A stretch of 64,000 nucleotides of DNA from Thermoprotei archaeon. GTDB lineage: Archaea > Thermoproteota > Thermoprotei > Thermoproteales > B15-G16. Both the position numbers and the translations under genes were made by a program. Position 1 is the stretch's first letter, and the number at the start of each line of letters is the position of its first letter. Below are positions 9,110-25,848 of the stretch, in pieces. The notes under the pieces are model-generated. The model made no database searches. It had not been told where the DNA came from and saw only the letters and a list, made by a program, of their open reading frames with translations. The stretch spans positions 285,081 through 349,080 of the forward strand of contig QMRC01000001.1 in assembly GCA_003649205.1 (NCBI GenBank), written 5' to 3'.

Positions 9110-9221
9110 GGACCCTGAAGATGGAGTTGAAGGTGTTTGTAAGTGTTTAGTTCTCTGATCCTTTCATATTGTGAACATCTTAGCGTCTAGTGTGGGGCTA
9201 CTCTTCGGCATCCTTGAAGTG

Positions 9222-10055: not shown

Positions 10056-10160
10056 CCATCTCTAGCCCCTATCTACTTTCTCGAGGTAGCTCTAGTACCT
10101 ATCTTGAGAGGTGATCTCTTGCAGGGTTTCCCTTCTTACTACCTACCTTATCTATGTCTG

Positions 10161-11178: not shown

Positions 11179-11676
11179 TTGTGGTATTCGGTCTGCAGGG
11201 TGATTGGGTTAGTTGTAGCTGTACTTATTTTGTTTTTATGTTGTATTTCTGTGGTGATTGGTGTGGGTGTTATTGAGAGGGTGAGGATTTATCTTGAGGA
11301 TGCTTGGGAGTTCTATAGGCGTGGTAGGGAGGAGCTTTTGAGAGGTCTTGAGAAAGGATATGTGTATGAGGTGAGGGATGGTGCTGAGAAGCTTTGGAAT
11401 GCTGTTGTTCAGGCTACTAATGCTCTAATTCTTCATCTCTTAGGTTTGGTTCCTGCTAGTCATTGGGAGTGGAGGAGGAAGTTGATGGAGCTTGAGGGTA
11501 GGTTTGAGGAAGTTGGTAAGCTTGGTCTCTGTGATAGGTATTGTGCGAGGGAACGTCATCTACGTGGTATGACGTTTTATGAGGGTATAGTTGATGAGGA
11601 TTTGCTTAGGTATGAGGTGCAGAAGGTTGAGAGGTATCTTAGGGATGTTGAGGATCTAATTCGTAGGTTAAGGTAG
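11179..11676 (+). CDS. PaREP1-family (HEPN-related) protein
   Basis: YLEDAWEFYRRGREELL...VRDGAEKLWNAVVQATNALILH matches the PaREP1 helical pattern. The hydrophobic N-terminal 35 aa may lie upstream of the true start. Confidence 0.6.
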   Translation: MWYSVCRVIGLVVAVLILFLCCISVVIGVGVIERVRIYLEDAWEFYRRGREELLRGLEKGYVYEVRDGAEKLWNAVVQATNALILHLLGLVPASHWEWRRKLMELEGRFEEVGKLGLCDRYCARERHLRGMTFYEGIVDEDLLRYEVQKVERYLRDVEDLIRRLR

Positions 11677-11746
11677 TACGCTGCTCCTTGACTCTTAATT
11701 GAGATCTTCTACTCTATCTGTTGAGTAGTTGTTGAGGGATTTTTCC

Positions 11747-12160
11747 CTATACGTAGGTGTGTACTTTGTATCTCTTTTCCTGGTCTTTCCATGGTTTTAG
11801 GTAGTTGAAGTAGAGGTATTCGTAGAGGTTGAGTTCATTTCTTGCCCATATTACTACGTGGTTTTTAATTATTGATATCTGGATGTGGAGTGGTAGTAGT
11901 TCAAATACTCTGAGGTCGTATTTACTGAAGTCTAGTGGTACTTCTCTCCATGCTTCCTGTATGAGCTGTATTCCTTCGTCTGGGTTTTTCCTTGTTTCTG
12001 GTACTACGAGGCATATGTCTATGTCTGATCGTGGTGTTGCTTCTTTGCGTGCATGTGAGCCGTAGAGTAGTATTGCTTCTACTTCTCTGTGTTTTTCGAG
12101 GAATTTACTGAAGGCTTCTCTAACTGTCTTGATTATTGTCTCGATTTCTTCTGTAGCCAT
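11747..12160 (-). CDS. mntA: Minimal nucleotidyltransferase antitoxin (MntA-type)
   Basis: ILLYGSHARKEATPRSDIDICLVV (GS-x9-DxD). Overlaps the upstream DUF86 gene by 28 nt. Confidence 0.8.
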   Translation of the reverse strand: MATEEIETIIKTVREAFSKFLEKHREVEAILLYGSHARKEATPRSDIDICLVVPETRKNPDEGIQLIQEAWREVPLDFSKYDLRVFELLPLHIQISIIKNHVVIWARNELNLYEYLYFNYLKPWKDQEKRYKVHTYV

Positions 12161-12573
12161 TTCTTAACTACCTCACTGAACTCTACTACGGAATTTCTTA
12201 ACTTAAGTATGCTGGTGTAGGCTAATCTATCGTCTATGCCATTGTACCTATGTACCAACACGTTCCTGAGACCATTTAGTTCACGTAGTTTTCCAAGTAG
12301 TTCATCCGTGATCAATCCTAGCTGCTTTAGGGTGTGTAGGTTTGTGTAGTCGTCTTTAACGACTTTACCCTCGTCTCTCACCATCATTGCGACAATATCC
12401 ATTATGCAGTCAGCTAGTTCCTGTACCACTTTGTACACTGCTTTCTTAGTTTTTACGTCTCTCAGAAATTCCTCTATGTTGGGTGGTATCCACTCCTTGA
12501 GTAGTGTTAGGCATTCGTGTATGAATTCCAGCTTCTCTTCGTATCTCTTTATGCGTTCGGTATCTAGTTTCAT
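12133..12573 (-). CDS. hepT: HEPN/DUF86 RNase toxin (HepT-type)
   Basis: Rx4HxY motif present (GLRNVLVHRYNGID). Size and pairing with the MNT gene are typical. Confidence 0.85.
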   Translation of the reverse strand: MKLDTERIKRYEEKLEFIHECLTLLKEWIPPNIEEFLRDVKTKKAVYKVVQELADCIMDIVAMMVRDEGKVVKDDYTNLHTLKQLGLITDELLGKLRELNGLRNVLVHRYNGIDDRLAYTSILKLRNSVVEFSEVVKKWLQKKSRQ

Positions 12574-13671
12574 GATACTTCCTCTCTGATTTCTTGGATT
12601 ATGTCTTTTGGTTCTATGTTTAGTGTTTGTTTTTGTACCATGGTTCTTATTGTCCAGTAGTGTGCTGGAAGTTGGTATGCTGTGTCTTCTCCGATCCAGT
12701 ATGTCTTACTTGGTTTCTTGTCTAGCCATTTGCTGTATAGTGGTGTTACTATGTTGTTTCTCAGCATGTAGTCCCATATTGGGTGTAGTTCGAGTTCATC
12801 TATGTTGTCTAGTGTTTGCTTTAGTTCCTGTAGTACCTGTATTGGTGGTTTCTGTTTTTCTCTGCAGTATTCCTTGATTGTTGTCTTCACTATCTCGATT
12901 ATCTTCTGAAGCCAACTGCCTATGTTCCATTTCTGTATGTGTAGTTCGTATATTGCTCTTGGGTTTCCTCCTGTTAGTTGCCAGAGTTGGTTGTGGTTTA
13001 GTGGTGTTTTTAGTTTGTTCAGTAGTTCATCATGTGCCTCTCTATCTAGGTTCCATATCTGGTACATGAGTATGTTCTTACCTTCTTCTCTCTTGAAGTG
13101 TTTTTGCTGCTGTTTGTTCGCTTGTTAGTAGGATTACGTGTACTTGACATCTGTGCTCGTGTGCTATGTCGTAGATTTCCTTGCTTAGTCCTGTTACTAG
13201 GTCTCTTATCGTTAGTCTGTACCTGTTTAGTGGTACTGTTACTTCATCGAATATGAGCACTAGTTTCCTTCCTTTGAGGTTTAGTCTCTTGGCTATGTAC
13301 TTGACGATGTTGTAGAGGTGGAGTAGTAGTTTTGCTCTATCTCCTACTAGTTCCTTGACTAGATTTTCTAGGGCCTCTACTACGCTGTCTTCGGTTGCTA
13401 TGTAGAATTCCTCTCTTACTGCTGCTTTTGGTAGGTTCATGTACGTGATCAGGATTTCTGGGTCTTGTTGTAGTGCGTGTGTTGTCGCTCTCATGAATTC
13501 CGTTTTTCCGCAGCCCCATGGTCCTGTTATTACGAGGTTTAGTGAGTGTTCTGGTTTTGTTTCTTCGCCGTACCTTATTAGCTCTAGTAGTTTCTCGTAT
13601 TCTCGATCTCTATCTACGAAATTTATGTTGAGGTCTGGGACTATGTACTTGTGTAGTTTCGTGGTTTTCAT
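12570..13671 (-). pseudogene. Arch_ATPase (PF01637-like) paralog interrupted by a frameshift
   Basis: ORF 13078-13671 carries the Walker A (GPWGCGKTEF) and stops at ...TAAKTLQERRR*. In the next frame the same DNA reads HFKREEGKNILMYQIWNLD, collinear with the intact paralog (HFLREQGKNMFTYLMWNLS). The shift maps to a T5/A5 run at 13101-13105. Confidence 0.75.
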
Positions 13672-13871
13672 TGGTTATTCGTCTATACTTTGTTCCTTTG
13701 GTGTTTATAATTCTGTTCTCTGCTGTGTTGTTTGAGGTGTTTTGTCTATGGTTCTTGTTTGTGGTGATGTTGTTGAGAGGATTGGGGTTATTGCTAGGTT
13801 TTCTGAGGTTGCTTTTTGTTGCTGTTGTCGGTTCTGTTGCTGTGAGGAGGTATTAGTTAGTTGTTGAGGCT

Positions 13872-14186
13872 ATGAACGATTCCTGTAGGCACATTGTCTC
13901 AGCTAGAGGTTGGGGTCCTGATTTCTCAGCTAAGGACTTCGTGGAGCTAGCTGTTAAGCACGGTGTTGTGTCTAGTGAATTAGCTAGGGAGATCATTATG
14001 GCTATTCGCTTGGGGAGTATAATCGTTTACAGGTACCTAGGTATTAACTATGAGGAGCTCTATAGGGGGGTTCAAAAGCTCACTACATTAGCTAGGGATT
14101 TTGAGAGGGAGGTAGTTAGCTTCCTTAGAAAGGTACTGGGTATCTCGCGAGTGAGTTATCTAGGTGTTCTCCTCTATAGTCTCTAG
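13872..14186 (+). CDS. Degenerate DUF86/HEPN remnant
   Basis: DUF86-like C-terminal half (HGVVSSELAREIIMAIRLGSIIVYRY) with the Rx4HxY site destroyed. N-terminal half missing and no partner NTase. Confidence 0.4.
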   Translation: MNDSCRHIVSARGWGPDFSAKDFVELAVKHGVVSSELAREIIMAIRLGSIIVYRYLGINYEELYRGVQKLTTLARDFEREVVSFLRKVLGISRVSYLGVLLYSL

Positions 14187-15311
14187 TACCTTTCTCGGTG
14201 TTGGTTTTTCTCCGGTTTCAAGTGCTGTCTTCAGTATCCAATAGTAGATTGGTGTCTGGAATGCGTACTCTCTACCAATCCATGGCTCTCCTCTAGGTAT
14301 CTTCGATAGCTTTCTAAATCTCTCATCGATGTTCATCACTATGTTCTCCTCTATCAACCTCCTAGATACTATGTACTCTGGTAGCTGAATACCTGGTTGA
14401 TATGGCTTTACACAATCTACACACTCAACTACTTCCCTTAGATAGTTCTCTACACTTAGATCTTGAGCTAACTTAATGAGCGGTAGTACCTTCCCTATCT
14501 TAGCACTTAGGTACCGATCTAGATTCCACCTCCATGCCCTTAACTCAGCTACTTCTCTCGGATTTCCTCCTGTTACCTTCCACACTAGCTCGTAATCTAA
14601 TGGGCACTCTAGCTTTTGGAGTAGTTGCTCTGTTGCTTGTTTACTAAGATTCCACATCAGGTACGTGAACATGTTCTTTCCCTGTTCTCTTAGGAAGTGC
14701 TGAACTGCTGTCTGATCACTAGTAAATGCTATTGGGTACAGGTACTCTAGCTCAAGTTCATCCCTTATCTCAAAGATCTTGTAGCTCAAGCTACTAACGA
14801 AGTCCCTAATGGTTACTCCATACTTCTCAAGGGATTTAGTAACCTCATCTATCAGCAATATCACTTTTGCACCTCTTACTCTGAATCTCTTTGATAGTTC
14901 TCTGAGGAATGTGTAGAGCTGTATTGGTACCTTAGCTACGTCACCTAGTACGTTGAGTACTATCTCCATACACGTCTCCACTACTCTCGATCTAAGTGGT
15001 TGAAAGACCTTACTTAGGTCCTGCTCTGTTAAGTCCATGTATATCGCTACGAAGTTCCCATAGCTGTCTAAGGCATGAGCTAGTGCTCTCGCGAACTGAG
15101 TTTTCCCACAACCCCACGGTCCTGTCACTACAAGTAGATGTTCGTAACCTCTCTCACGTATGTGCTCCTGAAGTAGTGTCTCAACTTCGTACTCTCTATT
15201 CACGAACTCTATCCCAAGATCAGGTACGCGGTACCTGTACAGTTTACTCACTACATCACGCATCCCATACCTCGTCAATGCTCTACTCACTCCCCATGCT
15301 TTACACCTCAA
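14160..15311 (-). CDS. Arch_ATPase family P-loop NTPase (intact paralog)
   Basis: Walker A GPWGCGKTQF and Walker B ILLIDEV. Conserved blocks MWNLS, GGNPRE and WIGREYAFQTPIYYW are shared with three other copies in the window. Confidence 0.8.
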   Translation of the reverse strand: MRCKAWGVSRALTRYGMRDVVSKLYRYRVPDLGIEFVNREYEVETLLQEHIRERGYEHLLVVTGPWGCGKTQFARALAHALDSYGNFVAIYMDLTEQDLSKVFQPLRSRVVETCMEIVLNVLGDVAKVPIQLYTFLRELSKRFRVRGAKVILLIDEVTKSLEKYGVTIRDFVSSLSYKIFEIRDELELEYLYPIAFTSDQTAVQHFLREQGKNMFTYLMWNLSKQATEQLLQKLECPLDYELVWKVTGGNPREVAELRAWRWNLDRYLSAKIGKVLPLIKLAQDLSVENYLREVVECVDCVKPYQPGIQLPEYIVSRRLIEENIVMNIDERFRKLSKIPRGEPWIGREYAFQTPIYYWILKTALETGEKPTPRKVLETIEENT

Positions 15312-15494
15312 TCTAGCTTAAGTACGTTGTTACCTTGATCCTCACTACATCTCCACTGTGATGTCCACTCAGTACCTAGTGCACGATCCTGTCTCAGGAT
15401 TTTTATAGGTGTGTTAGTTCTGATCTCTCGGGAGGACTCCTCGGTGAGGACCTAGTTCTCGGGCTTCGATGATCCGAGGGCCGGGCGGCTTACC

Positions 15495-16061
15495 TCACTT
15501 CTCCTCCTGTTCCTGTAGCAGATCCAGTAGTGTCACTTTCTGTGTTGTCTCCCTCTTGAGGACCCTCTCCACGAAGTGATCTCGAACCGGTTTGTAGACG
15601 TACTCAAAGAACTTCTGTGGATCCCTCAACACAGTTGTTGGAAACTTCTTCACGTACTCAACAGCCTTCTGCCACACTTCATCCCACGGTGCTATAGCCT
15701 CTACCTTAGCCCTGATCTGCCTATCAAAGTCTTCTGGTCTCTGCTCCTTACCACCCATCTCAAACCAACCACTTGGACCTACCGGTACCTCCTCACTACC
15801 TGGGCCGAAGACCTTCACCATACTCCTCCCACCACCTCTAGTCTCCTCACCAGGTATGTAGAACCTCCTACCACTCCTCGATACCTTACTCGACTGAGGA
15901 CCATAGTACTTCAACCACGCGTAGAAGATCGCCCTATTGAGTCCAAAGCTCTTAGCCTTCTGTAAATCACCTGTCAGTACGTAGTACCTCGCTGCCTGTA
16001 GCAAAGCCATAACCTCAAACCTACCAATCTTCCTCTCATCCCTAGTACTCAAGGTAATCAC
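15495..16061 (-). CDS. Hypothetical protein
   Basis: 188-aa ORF with coding-like composition between ATPase paralogs; no motif recognised. Confidence 0.45.
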   Translation of the reverse strand: MITLSTRDERKIGRFEVMALLQAARYYVLTGDLQKAKSFGLNRAIFYAWLKYYGPQSSKVSRSGRRFYIPGEETRGGGRSMVKVFGPGSEEVPVGPSGWFEMGGKEQRPEDFDRQIRAKVEAIAPWDEVWQKAVEYVKKFPTTVLRDPQKFFEYVYKPVRDHFVERVLKRETTQKVTLLDLLQEQEEK

Positions 16062-16193
16062 CCTACTTCAGTGAGATGTACGTATCTAAAGTCTTCTCCT
16101 ACATCTACTCAACGTAGTACCTCACATGTCAAAGACTGAAGCTTCACCTAATTTCGCATTCTATTTAAGTCCTCCACCTCCTCTACTCCCTTC

Positions 16194-16246
16194 AGGTGAT
16201 GAGGTTCGTTAGGACTGAACACTGATGACCGCTCGCGACCCTGATT
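16194..16246 (+). ncRNA. C/D box sRNA
   Basis: GTGATGA(16196-16202)-GGTTCGTTAGGA-CTGA-ACAC-TGATGA-CCGCTCGCGACC-CTGA(16241-16244); both guides exactly 12 nt. Confidence 0.8.
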
Positions 16247-16253
16247 TACTTCC

Positions 16254-17375
16254 TCACGTACTCACTTCCCTCAATATGGTTTCAGACGTAGGTTTCTGCT
16301 CTTTCTCAAGTATAGCCCTGAAGATGTAGTAGTAGAGAGGTACTTGCCAAGCCCATTCCCTACCAATCCACTCCTCTCTAGGCACTTCACTTAGTAAGTG
16401 ATTAGTAGGCTCTAGCGGTATGACCATGTTCTGTCTCAGCAACTCCTGCGTTAATGCTACTTCAGGTAGCTGCTGCTTAAGCTCCTCAGTAATAGGTATA
16501 GGAGCTAGAGAATCAATTTCCTCAACTACGCTCCTCAAGTACTTAAGCAACACATCACTACGCCTAATCATTGAGTAGAGTGACCAACACCTCACAATTT
16601 CCCTCTCTAACCACCTCTCTACATCCCATGCATAGACATTCCTCAATTCGTAGATCAATCTTGGATTACCACCACACAATCTCCACAGGATCTCATAATC
16701 TAGCGGGCACTTAACCTCCTCAAGTAACCTCATGAAAGCACTCTTCGATAAGTTCCACATCTCATAGATAGATAGTGTCTTACCGACTTCCCTCCTAAAG
16801 TACTGAATCAGTGACAGTTCACTAGTTAGAAGTACTGTAACAATATTCCTGAGACCAAGCTCCCTTCTCCACTCATGAATAGCCTTATCCAATGCTGAGA
16901 CGTAGTCCCTAATACTGATCCTATATCTGTCGAGAGATCTAGTAACCTCATCCATGAAGATAACCAAGTACCTACCAACTAGCTTGTACACCTCACATAG
17001 CTTCCTCAACAGAGCAAATACCTTGAGAGGAAACTTAAGCAAGTCCTCACACACCCTCTGAACTAACTCAAGGAGTAACTCCTTAACACCATACCTTGCG
17101 TAAATAGCTTGATGCAGCTCACTTTGAGTCAGATCAACATATAGGAAAACGAAGTCATTAAGCTCCTCTACAGCATACGTCACAGCTCTAGCAAATTCAG
17201 TCTTCCCACAACCCCAAGGACCATACACAACGTAATTCCAGGAAACACCCCTAAGAACCCAATCAAGAACATACCTAACCTCCCTCTCACGATCAACAAA
17301 GTAAATACCCAACCCTGGCACCACATACCTACCTAAGCAACTAACAACAACCTCAGTAACATCACCACAACACAT
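16254..17375 (-). CDS. Arch_ATPase family P-loop NTPase (paralog)
   Basis: GPWGCGKTEF, VIFMDEV, MWNLS, GGNPRL, WIGREWAWQVPLYYY. Confidence 0.8.
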   Translation of the reverse strand: MCCGDVTEVVVSCLGRYVVPGLGIYFVDREREVRYVLDWVLRGVSWNYVVYGPWGCGKTEFARAVTYAVEELNDFVFLYVDLTQSELHQAIYARYGVKELLLELVQRVCEDLLKFPLKVFALLRKLCEVYKLVGRYLVIFMDEVTRSLDRYRISIRDYVSALDKAIHEWRRELGLRNIVTVLLTSELSLIQYFRREVGKTLSIYEMWNLSKSAFMRLLEEVKCPLDYEILWRLCGGNPRLIYELRNVYAWDVERWLEREIVRCWSLYSMIRRSDVLLKYLRSVVEEIDSLAPIPITEELKQQLPEVALTQELLRQNMVIPLEPTNHLLSEVPREEWIGREWAWQVPLYYYIFRAILEKEQKPTSETILREVST

Positions 17376-17432
17376 CTAGACAGCACCAACCCAAATAAGA
17401 CAACAACAGAACTTTACCCTTACCCCCAACAA

Positions 17433-18064
17433 CTAGGAAACCTTCAACGGCTTCACAACCTCAAGAAACCTCCTAGCCTCCTTAACAGAGAAAGTACACA
17501 GCTCGTACTTAGGAGTAACCCTGTAAGCATCCATGTAAGGACCCTCCATGTGAAATCTCTGAAATCCTAGTAGCTGCAAACACTCCAACACTATCTCAAG
17601 CAGTCGACGATTAGTATTGACAAACTTCAACTTAACCCTCCTCTCAGTATAGGTCCTACTACCTCGCCTCCTCGTATAAGTATAGAACTTCAGATGTCCC
17701 TCCGCATCAAAGAAACCACGAACAAACTCTCTAGCATAATCCTTTGACCTCAAGACTAGCGACCTTAAGGCCTCTAGATCACGCCTATACCTCACAACCC
17801 ACTTACAGAAATCTAGGCTAAAGGTCACAACACAGTACACAGGTTTCTTACCAGGTTTTCCACTTGATCTAGGGGGTAATGGTACATCACGGTGCGCGCT
17901 GCAACATACTTCCTAACTATGGTCATGTAGTACTCTGCTACCTTTAGACACGTAATCAGCAATTCAACACGCTTAAGCCTAAAGTTAACATATCCATCAC
18001 CTAGCAATACACCAAGCACATAACACATATCAGGGTTTTCAGGTATGCTCACCATGCGTCCCAC
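17433..18064 (-). pseudogene. Free-standing double-motif LAGLIDADG homing endonuclease-like gene, split by a frameshift near 17825-17840
   Basis: ORF 17825-18064 has motif 1 (YVLGVLLGDGYV). ORF 17433-17840 has motif 2 (FVRGFFDAEGHLKF), followed by NRRLLEIVLECLQLLGF as in I-DmoI-type enzymes. The two ORFs overlap by 16 nt in different frames. Confidence 0.65.
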
Positions 18065-18178
18065 CTTCCAACATCATAGGGACGCAATGAATTATAAGGG
18101 ACTCAACATTATGACGCAATAATGGACGCAGTTAATTAGTGCGTCAAGTATATAAGGAGCGGTGGAACGTACTGTATC

Positions 18179-18748
18179 GTGCACTCTACCTTCAGGATAA
18201 GGTGTACACAGAAGAAAGCTGATGGGAGTACAGAAGTCATTGAATTAGAGGTTAGTGTAGAGGATCTGGAGAAGCCAGAAGTAAAGAAGCTACTTCAAGA
18301 CTTCTTAAGCCATTACTTGAGAGATTACAGCGGAGTCGAGATTAGAGTTGAGAAGAAAAGCTATCACACGCAACGCAAGGACTTTCACGTAGAAGCATTG
18401 AAAAAAGCAGCTGAGAGAGGTTTAGTCTTGAATTACGATGATGGAACCGTAGTGATAGATAGGGAGAACTCAAGAATTTACTTTTGGCCTCGAAACTGGT
18501 CTCAAACAACAGCTTCCAGAATGTACATTAAGTACGAAGATCTCTACATCCTATTAACCAAAGTCAAGGCTAGACTAGGATTGAGTAGAGAGATTAATTC
18601 CAGTACCATCATCACTAAAGTACTTGAAGAAGTGAAAACAAGTAGTAAGACATCAGCACTACTAAAGAGATTGCTGAAATACAGCGTAGTGAAGAGGTTA
18701 CTAGTCACACTACTACAGGAAATAGTACAGGGAAGGATTACCCTGTAA
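18179..18748 (+). CDS. Hypothetical protein, paralog of the 19824-20396 product
   Basis: Shares blocks V.DRE..RIYFWPRNWSQTT / YVDRVEGKMYVKPRGWSWTT and the C-terminal SALLKRLL....LLVTLLQEIV / RALTRLL....LLLVEFLWKVV. Confidence 0.55.
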   Translation: MHSTFRIRCTQKKADGSTEVIELEVSVEDLEKPEVKKLLQDFLSHYLRDYSGVEIRVEKKSYHTQRKDFHVEALKKAAERGLVLNYDDGTVVIDRENSRIYFWPRNWSQTTASRMYIKYEDLYILLTKVKARLGLSREINSSTIITKVLEEVKTSSKTSALLKRLLKYSVVKRLLVTLLQEIVQGRITL

Positions 18749-18788
18749 AATACACCGAGAATATGTAGGAGAAGTTAGTAGAAGTAAC

Positions 18789-18848
18789 TGGTAGCGGGGG
18801 GTGGATTTGAACCACCGACCTCGGGGTCTCTACGGCGGTCGCGGCGGC
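18789..18848 (-). tRNA. 3' half of split initiator tRNA-Met, with 15-nt complementary leader
   Basis: Minus strand: GCCGCCGCGACCGCC GUAGAG A38 CCCCG AGGUC GGUGG UUCAAAU CCACC CCCCGCU A CCA. It supplies the anticodon-stem 3' strand, variable loop, T arm, acceptor 3' strand, discriminator and an encoded CCA. Confidence 0.8.
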
Positions 18849-18870
18849 CGAGTTTCACTCCACACTTACG

Positions 18871-18889
18871 TGCTTATAAATCTTTCTCT
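18871..18889 (-). promoter_or_regulatory. BRE/TATA promoter of the tRNA 3' half
   Basis: Minus strand AGAGAAAGATTTATAAGCA. It ends 22 nt upstream of the leader and matches 17/19 nt of the element upstream of the 5' half. Confidence 0.6.
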
Positions 18890-18953
18890 TTGCTTTCCCT
18901 CAAGAGTTTGCTTAAGTTCTCTACGTAGTTGTTCTAGGTCTTGGAGAGTTTGG

Positions 18954-19304
18954 TCAAGTACTCTTGCCGAGTTTAGTATTACACGACACGTACCATAGGG
19001 GGTGTTTGCCTTGTCTAATCTTGGAGGGTTTCCTAACGTAGCTTTTCCAGAAGTTTTCTCGTGGAATACCTAATTCCTGACTCCAGAACTCGATAGCTTC
19101 GTCTTCATTCACACCTTCCCAGATCGTTAGGCGACACTTTAGCTCTCTAGGATCAACTTCATAAAACTGCTTGAGACTATAGATGAAGAGCTTTAGTAGG
19201 AGTGGATCCGTTGATGTCAAGGCAACTTTCCTACTTCTACCTCTCTTCGACTTATCACCTTCACACCAGTAGAGCATAAGCCACTCACGCTTAGACAGTA
19301 CCAT
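18954..19304 (-). CDS. Single-motif LAGLIDADG endonuclease-like protein
   Basis: EWLMLYWCEGDKSKRG...VALTSTDPLLLKLFIYSLKQ resembles the second I-DmoI motif region as I recall it (GLYVAEGDKT...NKNKALLEIVSRWL). Confidence 0.45.
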   Translation of the reverse strand: MVLSKREWLMLYWCEGDKSKRGRSRKVALTSTDPLLLKLFIYSLKQFYEVDPRELKCRLTIWEGVNEDEAIEFWSQELGIPRENFWKSYVRKPSKIRQGKHPLWYVSCNTKLGKST

Positions 19305-19827
19305 ATCTACTCAACTCCTCACTACACCTCTTAATGAACATCTCTAGGTTACTTACCGTATGCTGTATCTCCGGTACATGGCTGTAAGGATATAGCCATC
19401 CTACTAAGGTACGAGCAGATACTAGCATTAACCGAAGAGCTTCAGGGTATGGTTTAGCAATGACCATATAGCCAAAGGCCGTAGGTTCACTGCCATTGTC
19501 ACGTAGTAAGCCCAACGCCATTAGACTTAATTTGTCATTGCTGATAGTCCTTGGGTTTCTTGACCTTAGTCTTTCAGGAAGTTTCTTATTAATTTCACGG
19601 CAGTCACATACGCCTTGGTCTATGAGCTTAAGGATGTGCAAGAGCCTCTGTGGGCGCGCATAGCGGAAGTAGGGATACTTGAGAGCTATGTTCCGTTTAT
19701 CGACTGCTTTGCAGCTACAGTAATAGTTGCAGCATGAGTAGACTCCGTCCACAAGTGCTAGCGGTGCACTGCATTTCGGACAGTATGGTACAAGAAAAGA
19801 CCTTATAACTAACTTACACAGCGTCAT
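19291..19827 (-). CDS. Zinc-ribbon plus probable wHTH protein
   Basis: N-terminal CPKC...CCNYYCSC Cys cluster. Overlaps both neighbours (ATGA overlap at 19824-19827; 14-nt overlap at 19291-19304), implying one operon. Confidence 0.5.
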   Translation of the reverse strand: MTLCKLVIRSFLVPYCPKCSAPLALVDGVYSCCNYYCSCKAVDKRNIALKYPYFRYARPQRLLHILKLIDQGVCDCREINKKLPERLRSRNPRTISNDKLSLMALGLLRDNGSEPTAFGYMVIAKPYPEALRLMLVSARTLVGWLYPYSHVPEIQHTVSNLEMFIKRCSEELSRYGTV

Positions 19828-20396
19828 AGTACATCCCTCAGCTCATTCCTAACAACCTTCCATAAAAACTCGACAAGGAGTAGCTTACTACTACTTGAGG
19901 ATAGTAGCCTTGTCAGTGCCCTAGGGCTACTAGGCATAGAGGCAAATCTCCATAACACAGTCTCTACATCTGATATGCTAGAGGCGTTGCGTAGATTCTC
20001 AACGATCTGCTTAACTGTCTCCAGCGATAATGACGCACGAGTGACAGTAGTCCAGCTCCAACCTCTAGGCTTGACGTACATCTTTCCCTCTACGCGATCT
20101 ACGTAAACTTCTCCTGCACTGAGTTGTATTACCTTTATAGCACCTCTCTTGATTTGGTTAAGTAATTTGCGCACCCTAGGATCTTCCAGTGCCTCCTTTT
20201 GTTCTCCCCCTCCTACTGGAGGCTGCACTGACGCTGTACCTAGTATACTAACGAGGATTTGCGAAATGGCGTCGACAGGACCGCGTAGGTGAACTCTGAC
20301 GCCATCCTTCTCAATGGTAACTTCCACTTCTGGCATAATCTGCACCTCTGCATGGTCACTGACGCGCAGGCTTATAAACTTTGCGCATGGTGCCAT
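19824..20396 (-). CDS. Hypothetical protein, paralog of the 18179-18748 product
   Basis: See 18179-18748. The true start may be the internal MPEVEV (about 20336). Confidence 0.55.
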   Translation of the reverse strand: MAPCAKFISLRVSDHAEVQIMPEVEVTIEKDGVRVHLRGPVDAISQILVSILGTASVQPPVGGGEQKEALEDPRVRKLLNQIKRGAIKVIQLSAGEVYVDRVEGKMYVKPRGWSWTTVTRASLSLETVKQIVENLRNASSISDVETVLWRFASMPSSPRALTRLLSSSSSKLLLVEFLWKVVRNELRDVL

Positions 20397-20603
20397 TCAT
20401 AGATAGCTGCTTAGCGCGACCTTGATAAGCGCGAGAACCTTCTTTGAATTCTACATTATGGGATCCGAACACTATGTGGCTAAGTAGCAGGACTAGTAGT
20501 GCTCCGTAAGCTACATGGATCTATATATTGTGAAGCTCGGTTAGCCAGAGAACGATATTTCACAGCATTGAGGTAGGTGAACTAATGGAAAATTAGTGGA
20601 GGA

Positions 20604-20657
20604 GCCGCCGCGACCGCCTTATGAGCCCCGCGGGATACCTGGCTTCCCCACCCCGCT
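20604..20657 (-). tRNA. 5' half of split initiator tRNA-Met (anticodon CAU), with 15-nt complementary trailer
   Basis: Minus strand: AGCGGGG UG GGGA AGCCAGGUA UCCC G CGGGG CUCAUA A GGCGGUCGCGGCGGC. It supplies the acceptor 5' strand, a complete D arm, the anticodon-stem 5' strand and the loop through A37. Confidence 0.8.
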
Positions 20658-20687
20658 GCTATAGCCGGTACTCCTCCTTTCTTCTGA

Positions 20688-20706
20688 TGTTTATAAGTCT
20701 TTCTCT
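20688..20706 (-). promoter_or_regulatory. BRE/TATA promoter of the tRNA 5' half
   Basis: Minus strand AGAGAAAGACTTATAAACA. It ends 30 nt upstream of A1. Confidence 0.6.
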
Positions 20707-20739
20707 GTTTCTTGAATTGTGGCTTCTGGTGTTCTCTCA

Positions 20740-22092
20740 CTATTTGTCTTGTTGGAGTGCTTGCTTTATTGCTTCTAGGGTCTCTGGATCTAGTAGGTTC
20801 TGTGCATACTTCAGTGCTACTGCTGCTAGCTTTCTAGCGTTGTTTCCTGTTAGTTCTAGTACTCTCTTGAATTGCCTATTTGCTGGTTTCGTTATCCCTA
20901 GTACTTGTCTCGTGTACTCGTATGCTCTTCTAACTTCTACGTACTTGCTCAGTCCTGTTATGTAGACGTGTAGGTACTTCCCCTTCTTTAGCCGTGCTCT
21001 CATGTGTTTTGCTATGAGTTTGATCGCTGTGACTAGGCTCATCTCTGTCTGTGTGTACTGTGCTATGTGTAGTAGGTCAGTACGTACTTGTGCTAGTTTC
21101 AGTACTTTTCTTGGCCATAGGTAGCTCGGGTGTGTAGCTACTGCTCTTAGCATGAGTACTAGGCCTCTGTACCTTGCTTGATCTAGGAGTACTAGACGGT
21201 CTTTCTGTATCTCGATTCTTGGTCCTAGTGTTTGCTCTAGTTTTTCTGCCAGTAGTTTACGTAGGTTGTGTGGTAGTCTCGTACTGTACTTTAGCCTTAC
21301 CTCTACTTCTCCTCTTTTGCGTTTTATGGTTTTGAGTATACCATCCCCTATGAGTAAGCCGGCTACTAGTTCCTCTGCTAGGTTCTGTGTTGTGTTTAGT
21401 GTGTGGTGCCAGAGCTGTAGTTTGTTCTCTAGTATGTGCTGTGGAGCACTGTTCTGTAATCTGTGGTCTGTACTGAAGGTTATCGTGTAGCAGGTGTCTA
21501 CTAGATTTCCTGTCCGTATGTAGTACATCAGTGTTCTTGCTTGTAGTGGTGTTCCTAGTAGTGTTGCTACGTAGGTTATGTACTGTGTATCTGATGTTGC
21601 TAGTTGTAGTGCCCCATTTCTTGTACTGAGGTCTGTTAGTAGTAGTCCTAGTAGTAGCTTACGTTGATCGTACTGGTGCTGTATACCTGTTATCTCTGTA
21701 CCTATTCTTGCCTTGACTATGAGTCTTGGTTCTGTTGGTTTTAAGACCTTTAGCTTCTTTACTCTGGTCGTTAGCTTATCTACTGAGGTACGTTCTTCTA
21801 CTCTGTAGTTCTCGATGGAGTTTAGTACCTTGTTGACTGCTATTGCTCGTAATTTGGTGAGTGTGTACCATAGTTCTGCTGGTGTAACTTCGCCTAGCTT
21901 CACCTCTGTGATCCTTCTATCCACTTCCTCTACTATGTCTCGTAGTTGTCTTAGTACATGTTTCCTTATGGTTACTTCGTGGGTGTGGGTGAGTTCTTTG
22001 TTCATGTAGTGTTCTCTGACTTCTACTCTCATGACTATGCTGTTGTTGTCTTCCTGTAGTACTTCTTCTCTTAGCTCTATTGCTGGTTTCAC
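20740..22092 (-). CDS. Large LAGLIDADG-domain protein (450 aa)
   Basis: Two motif-like segments about 100 aa apart (KLLLGLLLTDLSTRNG and ELVAGLLIGDGILKT), flanked by N- and C-terminal extensions of unknown function. Confidence 0.55.
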   Translation of the reverse strand: MKPAIELREEVLQEDNNSIVMRVEVREHYMNKELTHTHEVTIRKHVLRQLRDIVEEVDRRITEVKLGEVTPAELWYTLTKLRAIAVNKVLNSIENYRVEERTSVDKLTTRVKKLKVLKPTEPRLIVKARIGTEITGIQHQYDQRKLLLGLLLTDLSTRNGALQLATSDTQYITYVATLLGTPLQARTLMYYIRTGNLVDTCYTITFSTDHRLQNSAPQHILENKLQLWHHTLNTTQNLAEELVAGLLIGDGILKTIKRKRGEVEVRLKYSTRLPHNLRKLLAEKLEQTLGPRIEIQKDRLVLLDQARYRGLVLMLRAVATHPSYLWPRKVLKLAQVRTDLLHIAQYTQTEMSLVTAIKLIAKHMRARLKKGKYLHVYITGLSKYVEVRRAYEYTRQVLGITKPANRQFKRVLELTGNNARKLAAVALKYAQNLLDPETLEAIKQALQQDK

Positions 22093-22296
22093 GTAGTTCT
22101 CTACTTCTCTAAGTGCTTTAGGGGGTTCATGATTGCTCTGTTCCTGGTTTGGGGTTAGGTATTTGTGTTCTCTTGCTGTTCTCTACTTCTGTGTGATGAG
22201 GAGTGCCGCGGTTTGATTGGTGATGTTTCTTCCTTTCCCTCGCTGATTGCTTTTCTTGGTTCATGTTTTTGAGTGGGTTATCTCTTTCTTCTCTAG

Positions 22297-23313
22297 GTGG
22301 TTTGTGTGGGTGTGGTTGGTCTTGCTGTTGTTGGTCTTGGTCGTATGGGTAGGTTGTACGTGGATGTTGTTGCTAGGTTTGTTGATGGTGTTAGGTTGGT
22401 TGGTGTCTTCACTAGGACGTTTGCTAAGGCTGAGGCTGTTGCTAGGGAGTATGGTGTTAAGGCGTATAGGTGTCTTGATGAGTTGTTGAGAGATCCTGAT
22501 GTCGATGGTGTAATCATTGCTACTCCGACGTACACTCATGCTGATTTCATTGTTAGGGTTGCTGAGGTTGGTAAGCATGTTTTCTGTGAGAAACCTATTG
22601 ATGTTGATCTTGTGAAGGCTAAGAGGGCTGTTGAGGTTGTTGAGAGGTGTGGTGTTAAGTTGCTTGTTGGTTACATGAGGAGATTTGATCGTGCTTACAG
22701 GAGGGCTAAGGAGGTTGTTGATAGGGGTGAGATTGGTGTGCCTCTTGTGTACATTGGTGTTTCTAGGGATCCTGAGGCTCCTCCTGAGGGTTGGTTGAGG
22801 GACCCTAGGTTGAGCGGTGGTCTCGTGCTTGATCTCATGTCTCATGACTTTGATTTAGCTAGGTGGTTTCTCGGTGATGAGGTTGTTGAGGTGTATGCTC
22901 ATGGTGGTGTATTCGTGTACGACTTCATGAGGGATCTCGGTGATTTCGATACTGTTGTTGCTTACTTGAGGTTCTCTCGTGGTAAGGTTGCTGTTGTGTA
23001 CGGTAGTAGGAGGGCTCCTCACGGTTATGGCATTAGGTGTGAGGTACATGGTACAGAGGGCTCTATCTCAATTGGTGTTGACTATGACTATAGTGTTAGG
23101 TTAGCTACTTCTAGTGGTGTGAGGTTTAGTGGTTTAGCTTGGTTTCAAGAGAGATTCTTCTCTGCGTATGTCGAGGAGATTAAGCACTTTAGAGATGTCA
23201 TCAGGTACGACATCAAGCCCCTGGTCTCTGGTTACGATGCTATTAAGGCTCTCGAGCTTGCTCAAGCAGTCACTAGGTCAATTATCGAGAGGAGACCTAT
23301 TGCCGTAAGTTAA
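22297..23313 (+). CDS. Gfo/Idh/MocA-family NAD(P)-dependent oxidoreductase
   Basis: N-terminal Rossmann motif (VGVVGLGRMGR) and the family EKP motif (FCEKPID). Confidence 0.85.
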   Translation: MVCVGVVGLAVVGLGRMGRLYVDVVARFVDGVRLVGVFTRTFAKAEAVAREYGVKAYRCLDELLRDPDVDGVIIATPTYTHADFIVRVAEVGKHVFCEKPIDVDLVKAKRAVEVVERCGVKLLVGYMRRFDRAYRRAKEVVDRGEIGVPLVYIGVSRDPEAPPEGWLRDPRLSGGLVLDLMSHDFDLARWFLGDEVVEVYAHGGVFVYDFMRDLGDFDTVVAYLRFSRGKVAVVYGSRRAPHGYGIRCEVHGTEGSISIGVDYDYSVRLATSSGVRFSGLAWFQERFFSAYVEEIKHFRDVIRYDIKPLVSGYDAIKALELAQAVTRSIIERRPIAVS

Positions 23314-24419
23314 ATAGTACTCACTATGGAGTCCATTAACCTACTCCACCTATATCTGAAGTTCCTGTAGCTAAATAACCTACTCCACTCTCTGCACATA
23401 GTTGAGAACTTAGTCCTTAACTTGCTATCTGTGACTAGTGTGTACGTTCTCTTAGCTAGCTCAGCTACGTCCCCCCATGGAACTACGTATCCTGTTAATC
23501 CATCTACTACGCAGTCCCTAACTCCTCCACAGTCATATGCTACAACTGGTGTACCTACGGTCTCAGCTTCTAGTGCTGTTATGGAAAATCCCTCTCTAAA
23601 GCTTGTAAGGACGTACACCCAGGAGCTTGAGAGTATTCTCCACTTCTCGAACTCGCTTACACACCACCTTAGCTCTAGTACATCCCCTATACCCCACTTC
23701 ATAGCTAGTTCTCGTAATCTCGTGAACTCAACATAGTTGCCTCTACCGGCTACTATGACCCTCAGCTCAGGTATGTGGGGTTTAAGTAGCTTTGTTAGGT
23801 AGAGTACGTGGTCTATGAACTTGTACCTCATTACTCGACCAAGGTATGTGATTGTTGGTGTTGATGACTTTGGGTGTAGTTCTTTCGGTGAGTCAGTACA
23901 GGGATTGATTACGGTGATTCTACTTCGAGGTATACCATATCTACGCTGTACCTCACTCTTCACGTACCTCGATACTGTCACGAAGATGGCAGATCTATGG
24001 AGTGTAGTGAGTAGTTCACCTACGTAAGCTCCTACTGCTCTGTGGAGTGGTTCCTCTATGAAGTACTGAAGAGTGTGGATGTGGTGAATCAGGAGTATTC
24101 GGTACCTACCGCAATTGAGTAATGTGGTGTTGTATGGTACACCACCTCCAAGACTCTCAATGACTACGTCTGGTCTCAAGCTCTTAGCTACGTAGGGAGC
24201 TACTAGGTGTATGCTGTACATGGTACCGCAGTGGTGTACAGGAAGCTCGTACCCATCGATCTCTATCTTGTCGTGTACCTGCCCACACCTTGAGCACAGT
24301 AACGTAACTCTGTATCCCTGCTCTATCAGTGCTCTTGCTAAGTTCCTGACGTAGTACTCAGCACCACCAGCTCGTGCATCGAGTAGGCACTTCCAGTTAA
24401 TGATTAGTACCTTGACCAC
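23310..24419 (-). CDS. Glycosyltransferase family 4
   Basis: C-terminal EGFSITALEAETVGTPVVAYDCGGVRDCV (E-x7-E region); GT-B layout. Confidence 0.85.
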   Translation of the reverse strand: MVKVLIINWKCLLDARAGGAEYYVRNLARALIEQGYRVTLLCSRCGQVHDKIEIDGYELPVHHCGTMYSIHLVAPYVAKSLRPDVVIESLGGGVPYNTTLLNCGRYRILLIHHIHTLQYFIEEPLHRAVGAYVGELLTTLHRSAIFVTVSRYVKSEVQRRYGIPRSRITVINPCTDSPKELHPKSSTPTITYLGRVMRYKFIDHVLYLTKLLKPHIPELRVIVAGRGNYVEFTRLRELAMKWGIGDVLELRWCVSEFEKWRILSSSWVYVLTSFREGFSITALEAETVGTPVVAYDCGGVRDCVVDGLTGYVVPWGDVAELAKRTYTLVTDSKLRTKFSTMCREWSRLFSYRNFRYRWSRLMDSIVSTI

Positions 24420-25848
24420 GAATCTTCCCTCTAGGTAGAATCACCATAGCTAATCTCACTACTAACGTCAGCACTCGTATTCCTAGCTTCTCAAGTAGTA
24501 ACATCATTACTAGAGCTACGATTAGTGAGGTGAGTAGCTCTAAGTACATACTCTCGATAGGATTTAAGATGTACACTAGGTAGAGGAGTGCTGCCACTAA
24601 TATCGAGGGAATCATTCGGAGCCAAGGTATTTCCATACCTAACCTAGCTGCAACCAGCACAGCTATACCTGCGCCAAGGCTGAGACTTACAACTCTAGCA
24701 TACGCAGCACCTATCGAACCTAGTGAAGGTACGAGAACTATGTACAGTACTACCTGAAGTATACTAGATGGTAGAGCGTAGGTAAGTACTTGCTCTGGTC
24801 TAGATGCTATGTAGGATGATGACCACGCAACGTTCATTGCTATTGCCAGTGGTATTGATGTAAGTAGTACCTGTATGAGTGGTATTGCTCTGAGGTACGT
24901 AGTACCTAGTAGAGATAGGAAGAATCTAGCAAGATAGAGCCCAACAACCATCAACACCAGTGATAGACCTAGAGACAAACTTGCTACTTCACTATAGTTC
25001 GGTGATTTAGATCCGTCGCTCTCCGATGAACTACTCATGGGGACTAGTAGTGTAGTTGCTAGTGTTGGTAGAAATGTCAGTGCCTGTGTGTAGGCTAGTG
25101 CTATGTAGAAGAGACCTGTCTCCTCACCACCATAGTACGATGATACTAGGAGAACACCGAAGAGGGATGGCGATGCAGATACTACGTTAGGTAGGTACGT
25201 AGGTAAGGAGTACCTAAGTACTAGGTGGAAGTCTAGTCTACTACTTTGTGGCAACAGGTGTATCAGTACTTCTCGAATGATTATTGTGTAGAGTATAGTG
25301 CCGAGAACTGTAGAGATCAAGTAACCCAGTACTACACCTAGAGCACCAAGCCCTATCACAGCTAGTGTACAGGCGGCTACAATCCTACATACCGCTACTA
25401 CCACATCTATGGTAGCTACCTGAGTACACTTGAGTAGTGAAATCCCGATGTACCTAGCTAGGTAACATATAGCATTCACTACTAGCCAGAGGGCTACAGC
25501 TACAATACATGTACGAGGTACGTTGAGTATGTGGGATATCGTGTGGGAGAATAGGTACAGTAGAGTAGCGGTTACTCCACTCGTTGTTAGTACTAGGATC
25601 GTTGATGTTGTAATTACCGTCTTTCTGTGTTCTTGATTTGGTACGAATTTGAGTATTGGTCCGTGAATTCCTAGGTTTACGAGTAGTGAGAGTAGGTATA
25701 GGAGGCTAAAAGAGGCGGAAGCTACTCCAAGTACCTTGAGGGATACTACCTTCGTTAGTATGAACCAGGTGAGGTACGAGAGTAGCATTGCAGTAGCTTG
25801 TGCTATGGATAGCACTAATGCTGACGACCACACACGTACTTCACTCAA
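24397..25848 (-). CDS. Polysaccharide/oligosaccharide flippase (MOP/Wzx-like) membrane protein
   Basis: 483 aa, 12-14 TM segments, overlaps the GT4 gene. Confidence 0.7.
   Translation of the reverse strand: MSEVRVWSSALVLSIAQATAMLLSYLTWFILTKVVSLKVLGVASASFSLLYLLSLLVNLGIHGPILKFVPNQEHRKTVITTSTILVLTTSGVTATLLYLFSHTISHILNVPRTCIVAVALWLVVNAICYLARYIGISLLKCTQVATIDVVVAVCRIVAACTLAVIGLGALGVVLGYLISTVLGTILYTIIIREVLIHLLPQSSRLDFHLVLRYSLPTYLPNVVSASPSLFGVLLVSSYYGGEETGLFYIALAYTQALTFLPTLATTLLVPMSSSSESDGSKSPNYSEVASLSLGLSLVLMVVGLYLARFFLSLLGTTYLRAIPLIQVLLTSIPLAIAMNVAWSSSYIASRPEQVLTYALPSSILQVVLYIVLVPSLGSIGAAYARVVSLSLGAGIAVLVAARLGMEIPWLRMIPSILVAALLYLVYILNPIESMYLELLTSLIVALVMMLLLEKLGIRVLTLVVRLAMVILPRGKIRGQGTNH

Follow-up and report, generated by a model that had tools for sequence, protein, structure and literature searches.

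Split tRNA genes have been read in two ways, either as ancient relics of two-piece genes or as late products of mobile DNA, the latter without an identified culprit. They are recognized by a GC-rich complementary sequence of 12-14 bp or more that follows the 5′ piece and precedes the 3′ piece. For the 'adjacent' split tRNA-Asp of Aeropyrum pernix, Chan et al. detected separate half transcripts by northern blot and invoked a mobile element, not yet identified, with a single position in a single tRNA as its target (Chan et al. 2011, PMC3218864). The initiator tRNA-Met (iMet) of Nanoarchaeum equitans is split at 37/38 (PMC3218864 Table 1; Randau et al. 2005), while that of Thermofilum pendens is permuted, with the break in the T-loop at 59/60 and the 3′ piece upstream (PMC3218864). 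Reported archaeal tRNA introns measure 11-129 nt (PMC3218864), and an integrase-mediated disruption has been described for the tRNA-Thr of Caldiarchaeum subterraneum (Sugahara et al. 2012, PMC3293823). There is precedent for tRNAs that are split or contain introns, for a split iMet, and for introns in rRNA that bear an open reading frame (ORF) and are spliced at bulge-helix-bulge (BHB) structures. Here, we analyze an iMet gene of a Thermoprotei archaeon that is interrupted at 37/38 by an ORF-bearing insertion. It lies in a stretch of 64,000 nucleotides (contig QMRC01000001.1 of assembly GCA_003649205.1, positions 285,081 to 349,080), which as a whole is called the window.

In the literature searched, three aspects of this locus are new: an archaeal tRNA gene that contains an ORF-bearing insertion of 0.6-1.8 kb, a conserved 'splitter' cassette that recurs in different hosts at an identical nucleotide, and a protein family that has neither annotation nor a structural match and is consistently found near tRNA genes. 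As the interrupting DNA and the gene are still in place, a sister site is empty, and copies are found in varied states of decay, a late origin of split tRNA genes from a selfish element becomes directly testable. We consider it probable that a site-specific mobile element invaded the iMet gene at the canonical intron site, with maturation as a split tRNA.

An initiator tRNA gene in two pieces

All coordinates are those of the whole window. The locus lies on the minus strand, where the halves read 20657->20620 and 18827->18789. The 5′ half comprises tRNA positions 1-37 (20620..20657, 38 nt, AGCGGGGUGGGGAAGCCAGGUAUCCCGCGGGGCUCAUA; ARAGORN and sequence reading), and the 3′ half positions 38-76 with an encoded CCA (18789..18827, 39 nt, ACCCCGAGGUCGGUGGUUCAAAUCCACCCCCCGCUACCA; ARAGORN and Rfam in E-value mode). 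The two pieces together, and only together, yield one complete tRNA. Joined, they give a 77-mer that ARAGORN identifies as tRNA-Met(CAU), with acceptor, D, anticodon and T stems of 7, 4, 5 and 5 pairs, 21/21 of them Watson-Crick. The cloverleaf is complete and combines the CAU anticodon with the initiator signature, that is, A1:U72 and G29-31:C39-41. In its long-intron mode ARAGORN models the genomic locus as a tRNA-Met with a 1792-nt intron. The sequences and positions of both halves given in an initial annotation of this DNA were borne out by the minus-strand reading, as were its joined cloverleaf and initiator signature by the ARAGORN result (tRNA-Met(CAT)). This confirms that the iMet gene is interrupted at the canonical 37/38 site, far beyond what chance would produce.

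Loci of this kind escape default tRNA finders, and metagenome-assembled genomes (MAGs) carrying them would be scored as having no initiator tRNA. Default ARAGORN and Rfam at gathering thresholds returned zero tRNA matches across the 64-kb window, and Rfam in E-value mode a weak tRNA-clan match on the 3′ half only. The window contains no tRNA besides the split iMet and is hence silent on gene redundancy. The 5′ half shares a 31-nt identical stretch with the iMet genes of Thermofilaceae MAGs.

Both junctions are matched at 100% identity in an independent Logan assembly (L004 and L002; labels with L denote loci outside the window). The Logan contigs (SRR6823441) end within both tRNA halves, L004 corresponding to window 20647..18801 and L002 to 18818..15703. 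These breaks suggest branching of the assembly graph at conserved tRNA sequence, the source of which is possibly a co-occurring uninterrupted allele or other archaea with the same tRNA.

The insertion and the empty site

A sister lineage, L009 (MAG CAZYGV01), carries the orthologous locus. It is 92.45% identical to window 20619-24933, a flank of 4.3 kb, and has the same promoter box and leader. Its anticodon loop is uninterrupted (...CTCATAACCCCGAGGTCGGTGGT), and the alignment ends exactly at 20619, from where L009 reads CCCCGAGG. Since the loop of L009 reads through and the alignment stops at this very position, the window holds a precise insertion of 1792 nt (18828..20619, minus strand), its length given by the L009 alignment and by the ARAGORN intron and its boundary ambiguous by one A. 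A scan of the sequence from D-arm to anticodon loop against one genome per species gave 7 loci, all in Thermofilaceae/Thermoproteales MAGs, and no split match among these species-representative genomes.

The borders of the insertion are 15-bp perfect inverted repeats, and no tRNA sequence is duplicated. Apart from the 1-nt A ambiguity, no target-site duplication was found at the junctions. Searches of the insertion proteins against Pfam and other family collections gave zero transposase matches, family searches of the window proteins revealed no integrase or recombinase in or near the insertion, and the window locus has no direct repeat of tRNA sequence. GC content is flat at ~0.43-0.47 across the locus, so that composition is uninformative on island status.

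Within the insertion, the conserved element ORF (18866..19304, minus strand) belongs to a family with the motif 'LYWCEGxK' and would encode ~145 aa without a 1-nt insertion near 19004; in its present form in the window, it is frameshifted and encodes 116 aa (18954-19304). Between the promoter of this core ORF and its start codon sits a secondary block of ~1.16-1.2 kb found only in the window (19305..20514, minus strand, approximate borders from comparison with the relatives' elements), which is nested in the element. It contains ORF190 (19824-20396, minus strand, probable start M21 at 20336, own TATA box at 20372-20378) and ORF178 (19291-19827, minus strand, Cys-rich N-terminus), neither of which gave a family match. 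On the other side of the block, a weak local alignment to the spacer of the related element L023 identifies a remnant of the element spacer and ORF promoter (20515..20587, minus strand, …CACAATATATAG). Altogether, three promoters and three ORFs on the same strand lie between the two inverted repeats. Given the nested secondary insertion and the frameshifted core ORF, the window copy is probably immobilized. The initial annotation had described collinear halves with genes between them: the halves are collinear, but the genes are cargo of a precise insertion that is absent from L009.

Related elements in other hosts

Copies of the element were found at the same tRNA site in other organisms. The last inserted ORF has a single non-self homolog, which led to L012 and L013, both assembled from one organism with a GC content of ~30%. 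L023 (38% GC) emerged when metagenomes were scanned with the 5′ junction, a search in which 13/16 matches were chance hits in unrelated, mostly GC-rich DNA; in viral contigs, the junction pattern had zero matches. Host GC of the related copies is 0.27-0.38, compared with 0.44 for the window. In L012/L013 and L023 the iMet 5′ half is followed by A + GGCGGCCGCGGCGGU and a tract rich in T or pyrimidines, after which come a TATA box and the ORF. At the other end, a box AGAAAG(A/G)TTTA overlaps the ORF stop and precedes ACCGCCGCGGCCGCC, (G/A)UAGA(G/A) and the 3′ half with its CCA. The whole unit measures 680-693 nt in L012 and L023, and the core of the element is ~600 nt with one conserved ORF. Similarity between L012 and L023 is 82% and limited to tRNA and element, with unrelated flanks.

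Comparison of the three lineages is informative on what has been conserved. Two positions of the helix formed by the inverted repeats differ between L012/L023 and the window, and both are compensatory double changes (U-A to C-G and C-G to U-A). The tRNA halves keep every stem pair in all three lineages at ~32% divergence of the ORF region. The ORF itself is intact in L023 (141 aa), carries the 1-nt frameshift in the window, and has a 21-nt deletion plus a stop in L012, a pattern of decay that is typical of selfish homing genes.

Two further observations concern these sites. Just upstream of the split iMet, L013 contains an ORF (637-909) weakly similar to PSV_ORF131 of Pyrobaculum spherical virus, which hints at viral DNA near the locus in that host. 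In another archaeon (L022 and L025; SDBU01000005.1 and SDBS01004366.1) an ordinary 32-nt intron that begins with GGCGG occupies the same iMet site, and such small introns may be relatives or precursors of the helix arms of the element.

Putative clamp helix, promoter boxes and splice junction

The inverted repeats form a helix between the two halves, the longest inverted repeat of the region, with 15 perfect base pairs and -36.9 kcal/mol. Its 5′ arm, the left terminal repeat (20604..20618, minus strand, GGCGGUCGCGGCGGC, equal to GGCGGTCGCGGCGGC), is separated from the 5′ half by a single A (20619) and covaries with the 3′ arm in L012 and L023. The 3′ arm, or right terminal repeat, was located by inverted-repeat search and energy (18834..18848, minus strand, GCCGCCGCGACCGCC). 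With 15 bp, the pair has the length by which split tRNAs are recognized. The perfectly complementary trailer and leader noted initially are thus recovered in this helix.

The box in front of the 5′ half resembles a TATA box with a transcription factor B recognition element (BRE) (20688..20706, minus strand, AGAGAAAGACTTATAAACA), its TATA starting 39 nt upstream of tRNA +1. This box is the host's own and is identical in the uninterrupted sister locus L009. A similar box in front of the 3′ half (18871..18889, minus strand, AGAGAAAGATTTATAAGCA) overlaps the end of the restored ORF, and both box and spacing are conserved in L023 and L012. The 19-mer AGAGAAAGAYTTATAARCA occurs exactly twice in the 64 kb, once before each half and both times on the minus strand, with 17/19 identical positions. 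By chance, 0.14 occurrences would be expected in the window at <=3 mismatches. Of a looser BRE/TATA core, the window has five copies, 3/5 within the split-tRNA locus. The initial annotation had reported this shared 19-nt element before each half and a fitting promoter distance for the 3′ half; both copies were found, nowhere else in the window, and the spacing agrees at the sequence level. TATA box and 3′ helix arm are 32 nt apart in the window, 34 in L023 and 36 in L012, which places the predicted transcription starts of all three copies 2-6 nt ahead of the arm. We also considered the box of the 3′ half as a copy of the host's 5′ promoter and rejected this origin, as L012 and L023 share the element box and have different host 5′ promoters. 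Because their 5′-half promoters are not the 19-mer, the box in front of the 3′ half is part of the element.

Past the 5′ arm, a pyrimidine-rich tract with UUUU (20588..20603, minus strand, UCCUCCACUAAUUUUC) is a weak candidate terminator of the 5′-half transcript; L012 has a T-rich sequence (TTTTTT) at the corresponding place, and L023 a weaker one. About 40 nt past the CCA end, a 7-bp hairpin followed by a T-rich tract (18726-18747, minus strand) is a possible terminator of a 3′-half transcript. A scan for sigma-70 promoters and intrinsic terminators yielded nothing above shuffled sequence, with models that are not relevant to archaea.

In a relaxed BHB model, the segment GUAGAG between 3′ arm and 3′ half (18828..18833, minus strand) would provide one strand of the central helix and the first two nucleotides of the 3′ bulge. 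The register can be drawn with the 3-nt bulges UAA and AGA and 2/4 central pairs, and geometrically it is the sole one that gives the correct exons. In L012 the segment reads AUAGAA. Neither substitution touches a position that is paired in the BHB register, and one of the two disrupts a pair of a competing register.

A protein family in the neighbourhood of tRNA genes

To place the conserved ORF, a profile was built from its three copies. A word-indexed search with it retrieved 122 proteins, and an exhaustive HMMER search 1383 cluster representatives. Family members come in a short form of 113-150 aa, a form of ~200-235 aa with an N-terminal helix-turn-helix (HTH), and a few proteins with two copies of the domain. 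The residues Y12, W13, E15, G16, K18, W74 and G104 are near-invariant and give the motif LYWCEGxK. An AlphaFold2 (AF2) model of the family is confident, with a predicted local distance difference test score (pLDDT) of 93.6; an earlier model from 3 sequences reached 62.7 and was unusable. The HTH of the long members resembles the DNA-binding module of phage homing endonucleases.

Two assignments were examined and discarded. The motif 'LYWCEGDK' and the neighbouring LAGLIDADG genes had raised the suspicion of a LAGLIDADG protein. There was, however, no Pfam match at E<=10, a profile search of the PDB returned only noise, the AF2 model had no LAGLIDADG match in a PDB Foldseek search, and hhalign against LAGLIDADG was insignificant. 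Matches of family members to the PHROG 'HNH endonuclease' are confined to the N-terminal HTH and do not extend to the core domain.

What characterizes the family is its genomic setting. In every cellular locus examined (9/9 contexts), a member lies inside a tRNA gene or <=180 nt from one. For all close relatives the neighbour is iMet (window, L012/13, L023, L030-32, L033, L034, L035/36 and L050). Those outside split elements are 40-48% identical to the ORF, and all stand beside initiator tRNA genes: 90 nt downstream of a multi-intron iMet gene in L033, abutting an iMet gene of the opposite strand in L034, and, in L035/L036 and L050, 117-177 nt downstream of iMet genes whose 37/38 introns measure 25 and 49 nt. 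A more distant archaeal member follows tRNA-Val (L037), and a member in bacteria of the candidate phyla radiation (CPR) is found in a tRNA cluster, 8 nt before tRNA-Trp (L038-L040, Moranbacteria-like contigs). In contigs of the viral collection IMG/VR (L041-L049) a tRNA occurs within 1.5 kb in 8/9 loci, several of them in dense tRNA arrays. The CPR and viral members bear the HTH. A typical prokaryotic genome has an estimated ~1 tRNA per 20 kb; against this estimate, the adjacency to tRNA genes is a strong enrichment. In L039, a GIY-YIG ORF occupies the same tRNA cluster as the family member.

Some loci carry traces of rearrangement. In L030-32 the ORF is flanked on one side by the iMet gene and on the other by a second copy of that gene's 3′ portion. 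The second copy in L030 starts at U33 in the anticodon loop, has no intron at 37/38 and ends with CCA, while the upstream tRNA copy has three introns and no CCA (2873-2934 vs 3502-3564 for the duplicated portion). In L035 a degenerate remnant of the 3′ portion follows the ORF (430-455 vs 1033-1058), with 23/26 identical positions and a score of 37 against a shuffle maximum of 23. In L050 and L033 a directly repeated tRNA 3′ portion after the ORF did not rise above shuffled controls. The duplicated 3′ portions of L030 and L035 point to breakage and repair of DNA at the anticodon loop, and their layout is a possible intermediate between a tRNA with a neighbouring ORF and an ORF inside a split tRNA.

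Proposed mechanism and alternative explanations

A coherent mechanism can be proposed from these features. The core of ~600 nt would bring three components: two 15-nt GC-rich terminal inverted repeats that, in RNA, would clamp the halves beside the anticodon stem; a core ORF with its own promoter, from the tRNA-gene-associated family and presumed to encode a homing-type nuclease; and a BRE/TATA box at the 3′ end of the element that would start transcription a few nucleotides ahead of the 3′ helix arm. Transcription of the 5′ half would then start at the host promoter, and that of the 3′ half at the promoter of the element. The two half RNAs would anneal via the 15-bp helix, a crenarchaeal-type splicing endonuclease would cut the relaxed BHB after A37 and before A38, and an RtcB-type ligase would join the exons, possibly with some cis-splicing of read-through transcripts. 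In this way the element would occupy the one position where archaeal splicing can repair the damage, and would itself supply the clamp helix and a promoter for the downstream half. We infer that the ORF encodes a nuclease of the homing type that serves mobility. The states of ORF decay, the empty L009 site, the unrelated flanks of the copies, and the 3′ duplications in L030 and L035 fit the life cycle of a homing gene. Joining of the halves in trans and cis-splicing of one long precursor are both compatible with the sequence.

Several points weigh against this scheme. The mobility role of the ORF is argued from context, and the protein could alternatively be a tRNA-related factor. Foldseek searches of the AF2 model against PDB and BFVD reached template modelling (TM) scores of <=0.41 and matched no known fold, and Pfam, NCBIfam and PHROGs recognize the HTH alone, leaving out the core domain. 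The relaxed BHB proposed initially can be drawn and gives the right exons, but with two of four central pairs it is, by nearest-neighbour energies, 7.2 kcal/mol (window and L023) or 3.8 kcal/mol (L012) less stable than a pairing of the anticodon loop with the trailer. Similarly, the tract that had been taken as the terminator of the 5′ half is present but merely a UUUU in a pyrimidine-rich stretch, and it is weak in L023 as well. Because the contig of L009 stops within the T-stem, its gene is seen to be uninterrupted as far as position ~53, and with two genomes a gain in the window lineage and a precise loss in that of L009 fit alike.

How the element compares with established classes of mobile DNA helps to weigh the alternatives. 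Of the hallmarks of insertion sequences (IS) or miniature inverted-repeat transposable elements (MITE), it has the inverted repeats, with neither a target-site duplication nor a transposase match. Those of integrase-type elements are missing, as there is neither a tyrosine or serine recombinase nor a direct att repeat at the borders. As in mobile introns, an intron-less allele exists in a close relative (L009) and homologous elements occupy the identical site in unrelated backgrounds; a recognized homing endonuclease, which is LAGLIDADG in all described archaeal cases, was not found in the ORF. Integration of a plasmid or virus into the tRNA gene in the style of SSV or pNOB8, as proposed for the Caldiarchaeum tRNA-Thr, followed by decay, is very improbable. 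In its favour, the usual att sites of archaea are tRNA genes (PMC3293823), the ORF of L030 and L035 is flanked by a duplicated tRNA 3′ portion, and just downstream in the window are remnants of mobile genes, namely a paralog of ORF190 and a LAGLIDADG_3 ORF with a frameshift. Yet such an event is at odds with the missing recombinase and the missing direct repeat of tRNA sequence in the window, with the size of merely 0.6-1.8 kb, with borders that are inverted rather than direct repeats, and with the junction being unmatched in viral contigs. Even harder to credit is a chimeric assembly or metagenomic mis-join that brought foreign DNA in between two parts of an ordinary tRNA gene. The DNA comes from a metagenome-assembled contig of 485 kb (ENA ERZ1742239), and the Logan contigs end inside the tRNA halves; nevertheless, that independent assembly covers both junctions at 100% (L004, 20647..18801), homologous junctions occur in three further assemblies of other organisms (L012, L013 and L023), and a mis-join cannot produce perfect 15-bp complementarity together with covariation.

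It is also improbable, though less so, that the insertion killed a copy of the iMet gene whose function is met by another initiator gene, with helix and promoter as mere transposon features. Perfect 15-bp terminal inverted repeats and an outward promoter are ordinary in transposons, the BHB is thermodynamically disfavoured, and the search for another iMet was limited to the 64-kb window, where there is no other tRNA. A dead gene would, however, hardly keep every stem of both halves unbroken across three lineages in which the ORF region diverged by ~32% and two copies of the ORF broke. The inverted repeats vary by compensatory pairs, as an RNA helix would and a protein-recognized repeat would not. 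There is no target-site duplication, the insertion sits exactly where archaeal splicing can restore the tRNA, most archaea have one gene per tRNA species (PMC3293823), and the sister lineage L009 keeps its iMet at this locus. The alternative closest to our reading is a giant cis-spliced intron, which we regard as unlikely: a 1.9-kb transcript whose inverted repeats form the splice motif, with internal TATA boxes that serve the ORFs only and an excised intron that is possibly circularized and used as mRNA. It agrees with the ARAGORN model of one tRNA with a 1792-nt intron, with collinear halves on one strand, and with the weak T-tract past the 5′ arm in the window and L023. ORF-bearing archaeal rRNA introns are comparable in size and layout to the ~600-nt core with its one ORF. 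In A. pernix, reverse-transcription PCR detected a low-level read-through precursor, but the northern blot gave halves and not the precursor (PMC3218864). Against a giant intron, the TATA box at the 3′ end is fixed 32-36 nt from the 3′ arm in three diverged copies with no ORF downstream that it could serve, and three promoters and three ORFs on the same strand between the arms make a clean full-length precursor less likely. Mechanistically, it differs from invasion by a mobile element with split-tRNA maturation in transcript topology alone.

Going beyond the locus, we tentatively suggest, as a possibility somewhat short of even chances, that the ORF founds a new family of homing-type nucleases, unlike known structures, that targets tRNA genes in Archaea, CPR bacteria and large viral contigs. 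Its iMet clade would cut the anticodon loop and survive either through a replacement 3′ half, as in L030 and L035, or through a 'splitter' cassette of helix clamp, ORF and downstream promoter that splits the gene in one step. If true, the family would be the postulated and never-found agent behind the 'recently split' crenarchaeal tRNAs, and split tRNA genes would be products of selfish DNA instead of relics of primordial half-genes. The work adds a large protein family (1383 clusters) with a confident, unmatched fold and a consistent tRNA-gene neighbourhood.

Genes flanking the locus

The surroundings carry further traces of mobile DNA. Just downstream of the 3′ half, two overlapping ORFs (17433-18064, minus strand) together resemble a frameshifted LAGLIDADG_3 endonuclease, the second part with a Pfam match at E=1e-5. 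Just outside the 3′ half, ORF189 (18179-18748, plus strand) is a paralog of ORF190 (E=2e-9). The LAGLIDADG_3 remnant and ORF189 look like a second, older mobile-element remnant, and the split-tRNA locus acts as a sink for mobile DNA. An ORF of 450 aa (20740-22092, minus strand) that lies directly upstream of the tRNA promoter has no Pfam or PHROG match and shows by eye two LAGLIDADG-like motifs (LLGLLLTDLS and LVAGLLIGDGIL). This ORF predates the insertion, as it is conserved in the sister locus L009. Farther away, at ~9200-17400, a run of archaeal ATPase_2 genes (PF01637) alternates with pairs of HEPN/HepT-like and nucleotidyltransferase (NTP_transf_2) genes, which are of toxin-antitoxin or defence type and flank the tRNA locus. 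Look-ups by exact protein sequence gave no match for the GFO/IDH/MocA ORF or for P0001, owing to the choice of start codon or to gaps in the records.

Comparison with known systems

Among the closest described cases is the split tRNA-Asp of A. pernix. Both loci have collinear halves, a 37/38 junction and a GC-rich stem (14 bp after the splice motif there, 15 bp after the proposed one here), as well as a strong internal promoter that resembles the upstream one and is placed for a short GC-rich leader. In both cases relatives keep an uninterrupted gene, which dates the split as recent. The spacer of A. pernix, in contrast, is 121 nt long and has no ORF, whereas here it amounts to 0.6-1.8 kb, carries a conserved ORF family along with nested cargo, and has homologous copies in further hosts. 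For A. pernix a canonical helix-bulge-helix-bulge-helix motif (hBHBh′) was reported, whereas a relaxed BHB is the most that can be drawn here, and the transcripts were demonstrated there while ours are predicted from sequence. The initial annotation had called the window locus an intermediate between an intron and a split gene; the description is apt, but it had been proposed before, by Chan et al. for A. pernix (PMC3218864).

With N. equitans, whose initiator the annotation had named as precedent in agreement with the 37/38 split listed in Table 1 of PMC3218864, the window shares the tRNA species, the junction at 37/38, a leader that is complementary to the trailer, and a promoter in front of each half. 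There, the halves are ~32 kb apart, the gene is one of six split tRNAs, and no element is associated; here, one gene is split, its halves are 1.8 kb apart, and the element is in place. The iMet gene of T. pendens, from a related lineage, is the same tRNA with the 31-nt identical stretch, and likewise a rearranged gene dependent on the splicing endonuclease. It has no ORF, whereas the window gene breaks at 37/38, keeps the normal order of its halves and bears an ORF in its insert. Thermofilaceae MAGs (L006, L007, L010 and L011) show the same T-loop permutation as T. pendens, with TCCACCCCCCGCTACCA upstream of AGCGGGG and in some cases additional introns. In L005 the T-loop contains an intron without permutation, and in L008 an intron of 20 nt lies at 37/38. 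The iMet gene has been rearranged in at least four different ways in this Thermofilaceae-related clade.

The tRNA-Thr locus of C. subterraneum is also a 1.8-kb mobile insertion at a tRNA gene with heterogeneity among populations or lineages, and has been put forward as a way in which split tRNAs could arise. It has a recombinase gene, a tRNA fragment in direct repeat and an adjacent intact tRNA copy, and in this differs from the window, which has inverted repeats, no recombinase and no intact tRNA copy. Among bacteriophages, SegB of T4 is a free-standing GIY-YIG homing endonuclease in a tRNA gene cluster. Like the family described here, it is a small nuclease-type gene between or beside tRNA genes, inherited preferentially with its flanks, and a modular HTH recurs in our long members. 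In contrast, the window family has an unannotated core, occurs mainly in archaea and CPR bacteria, and has one clade inside a tRNA gene.

In terms of architecture, the element can be set beside the BHB introns of crenarchaeal 16S and 23S rRNA genes that encode LAGLIDADG homing endonucleases (for example I-DmoI and I-PorI; PMC4496867 for Thermoproteales). These are insertions of 0.6-0.8 kb in a gene for a stable RNA as well, with borders that pair into the splice motif, one ORF in the distal loop, a sporadic distribution, intron-less alleles in relatives, and decaying ORFs. In the window the host gene is a tRNA, and the ORF is not LAGLIDADG by sequence or predicted fold. Our reading would extend ORF-bearing archaeal introns from rRNA to tRNA genes, at 0.6-1.8 kb compared with 11-129 nt. 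Unlike the rRNA introns, the window element carries a promoter toward the downstream exon and can act as a gene splitter.

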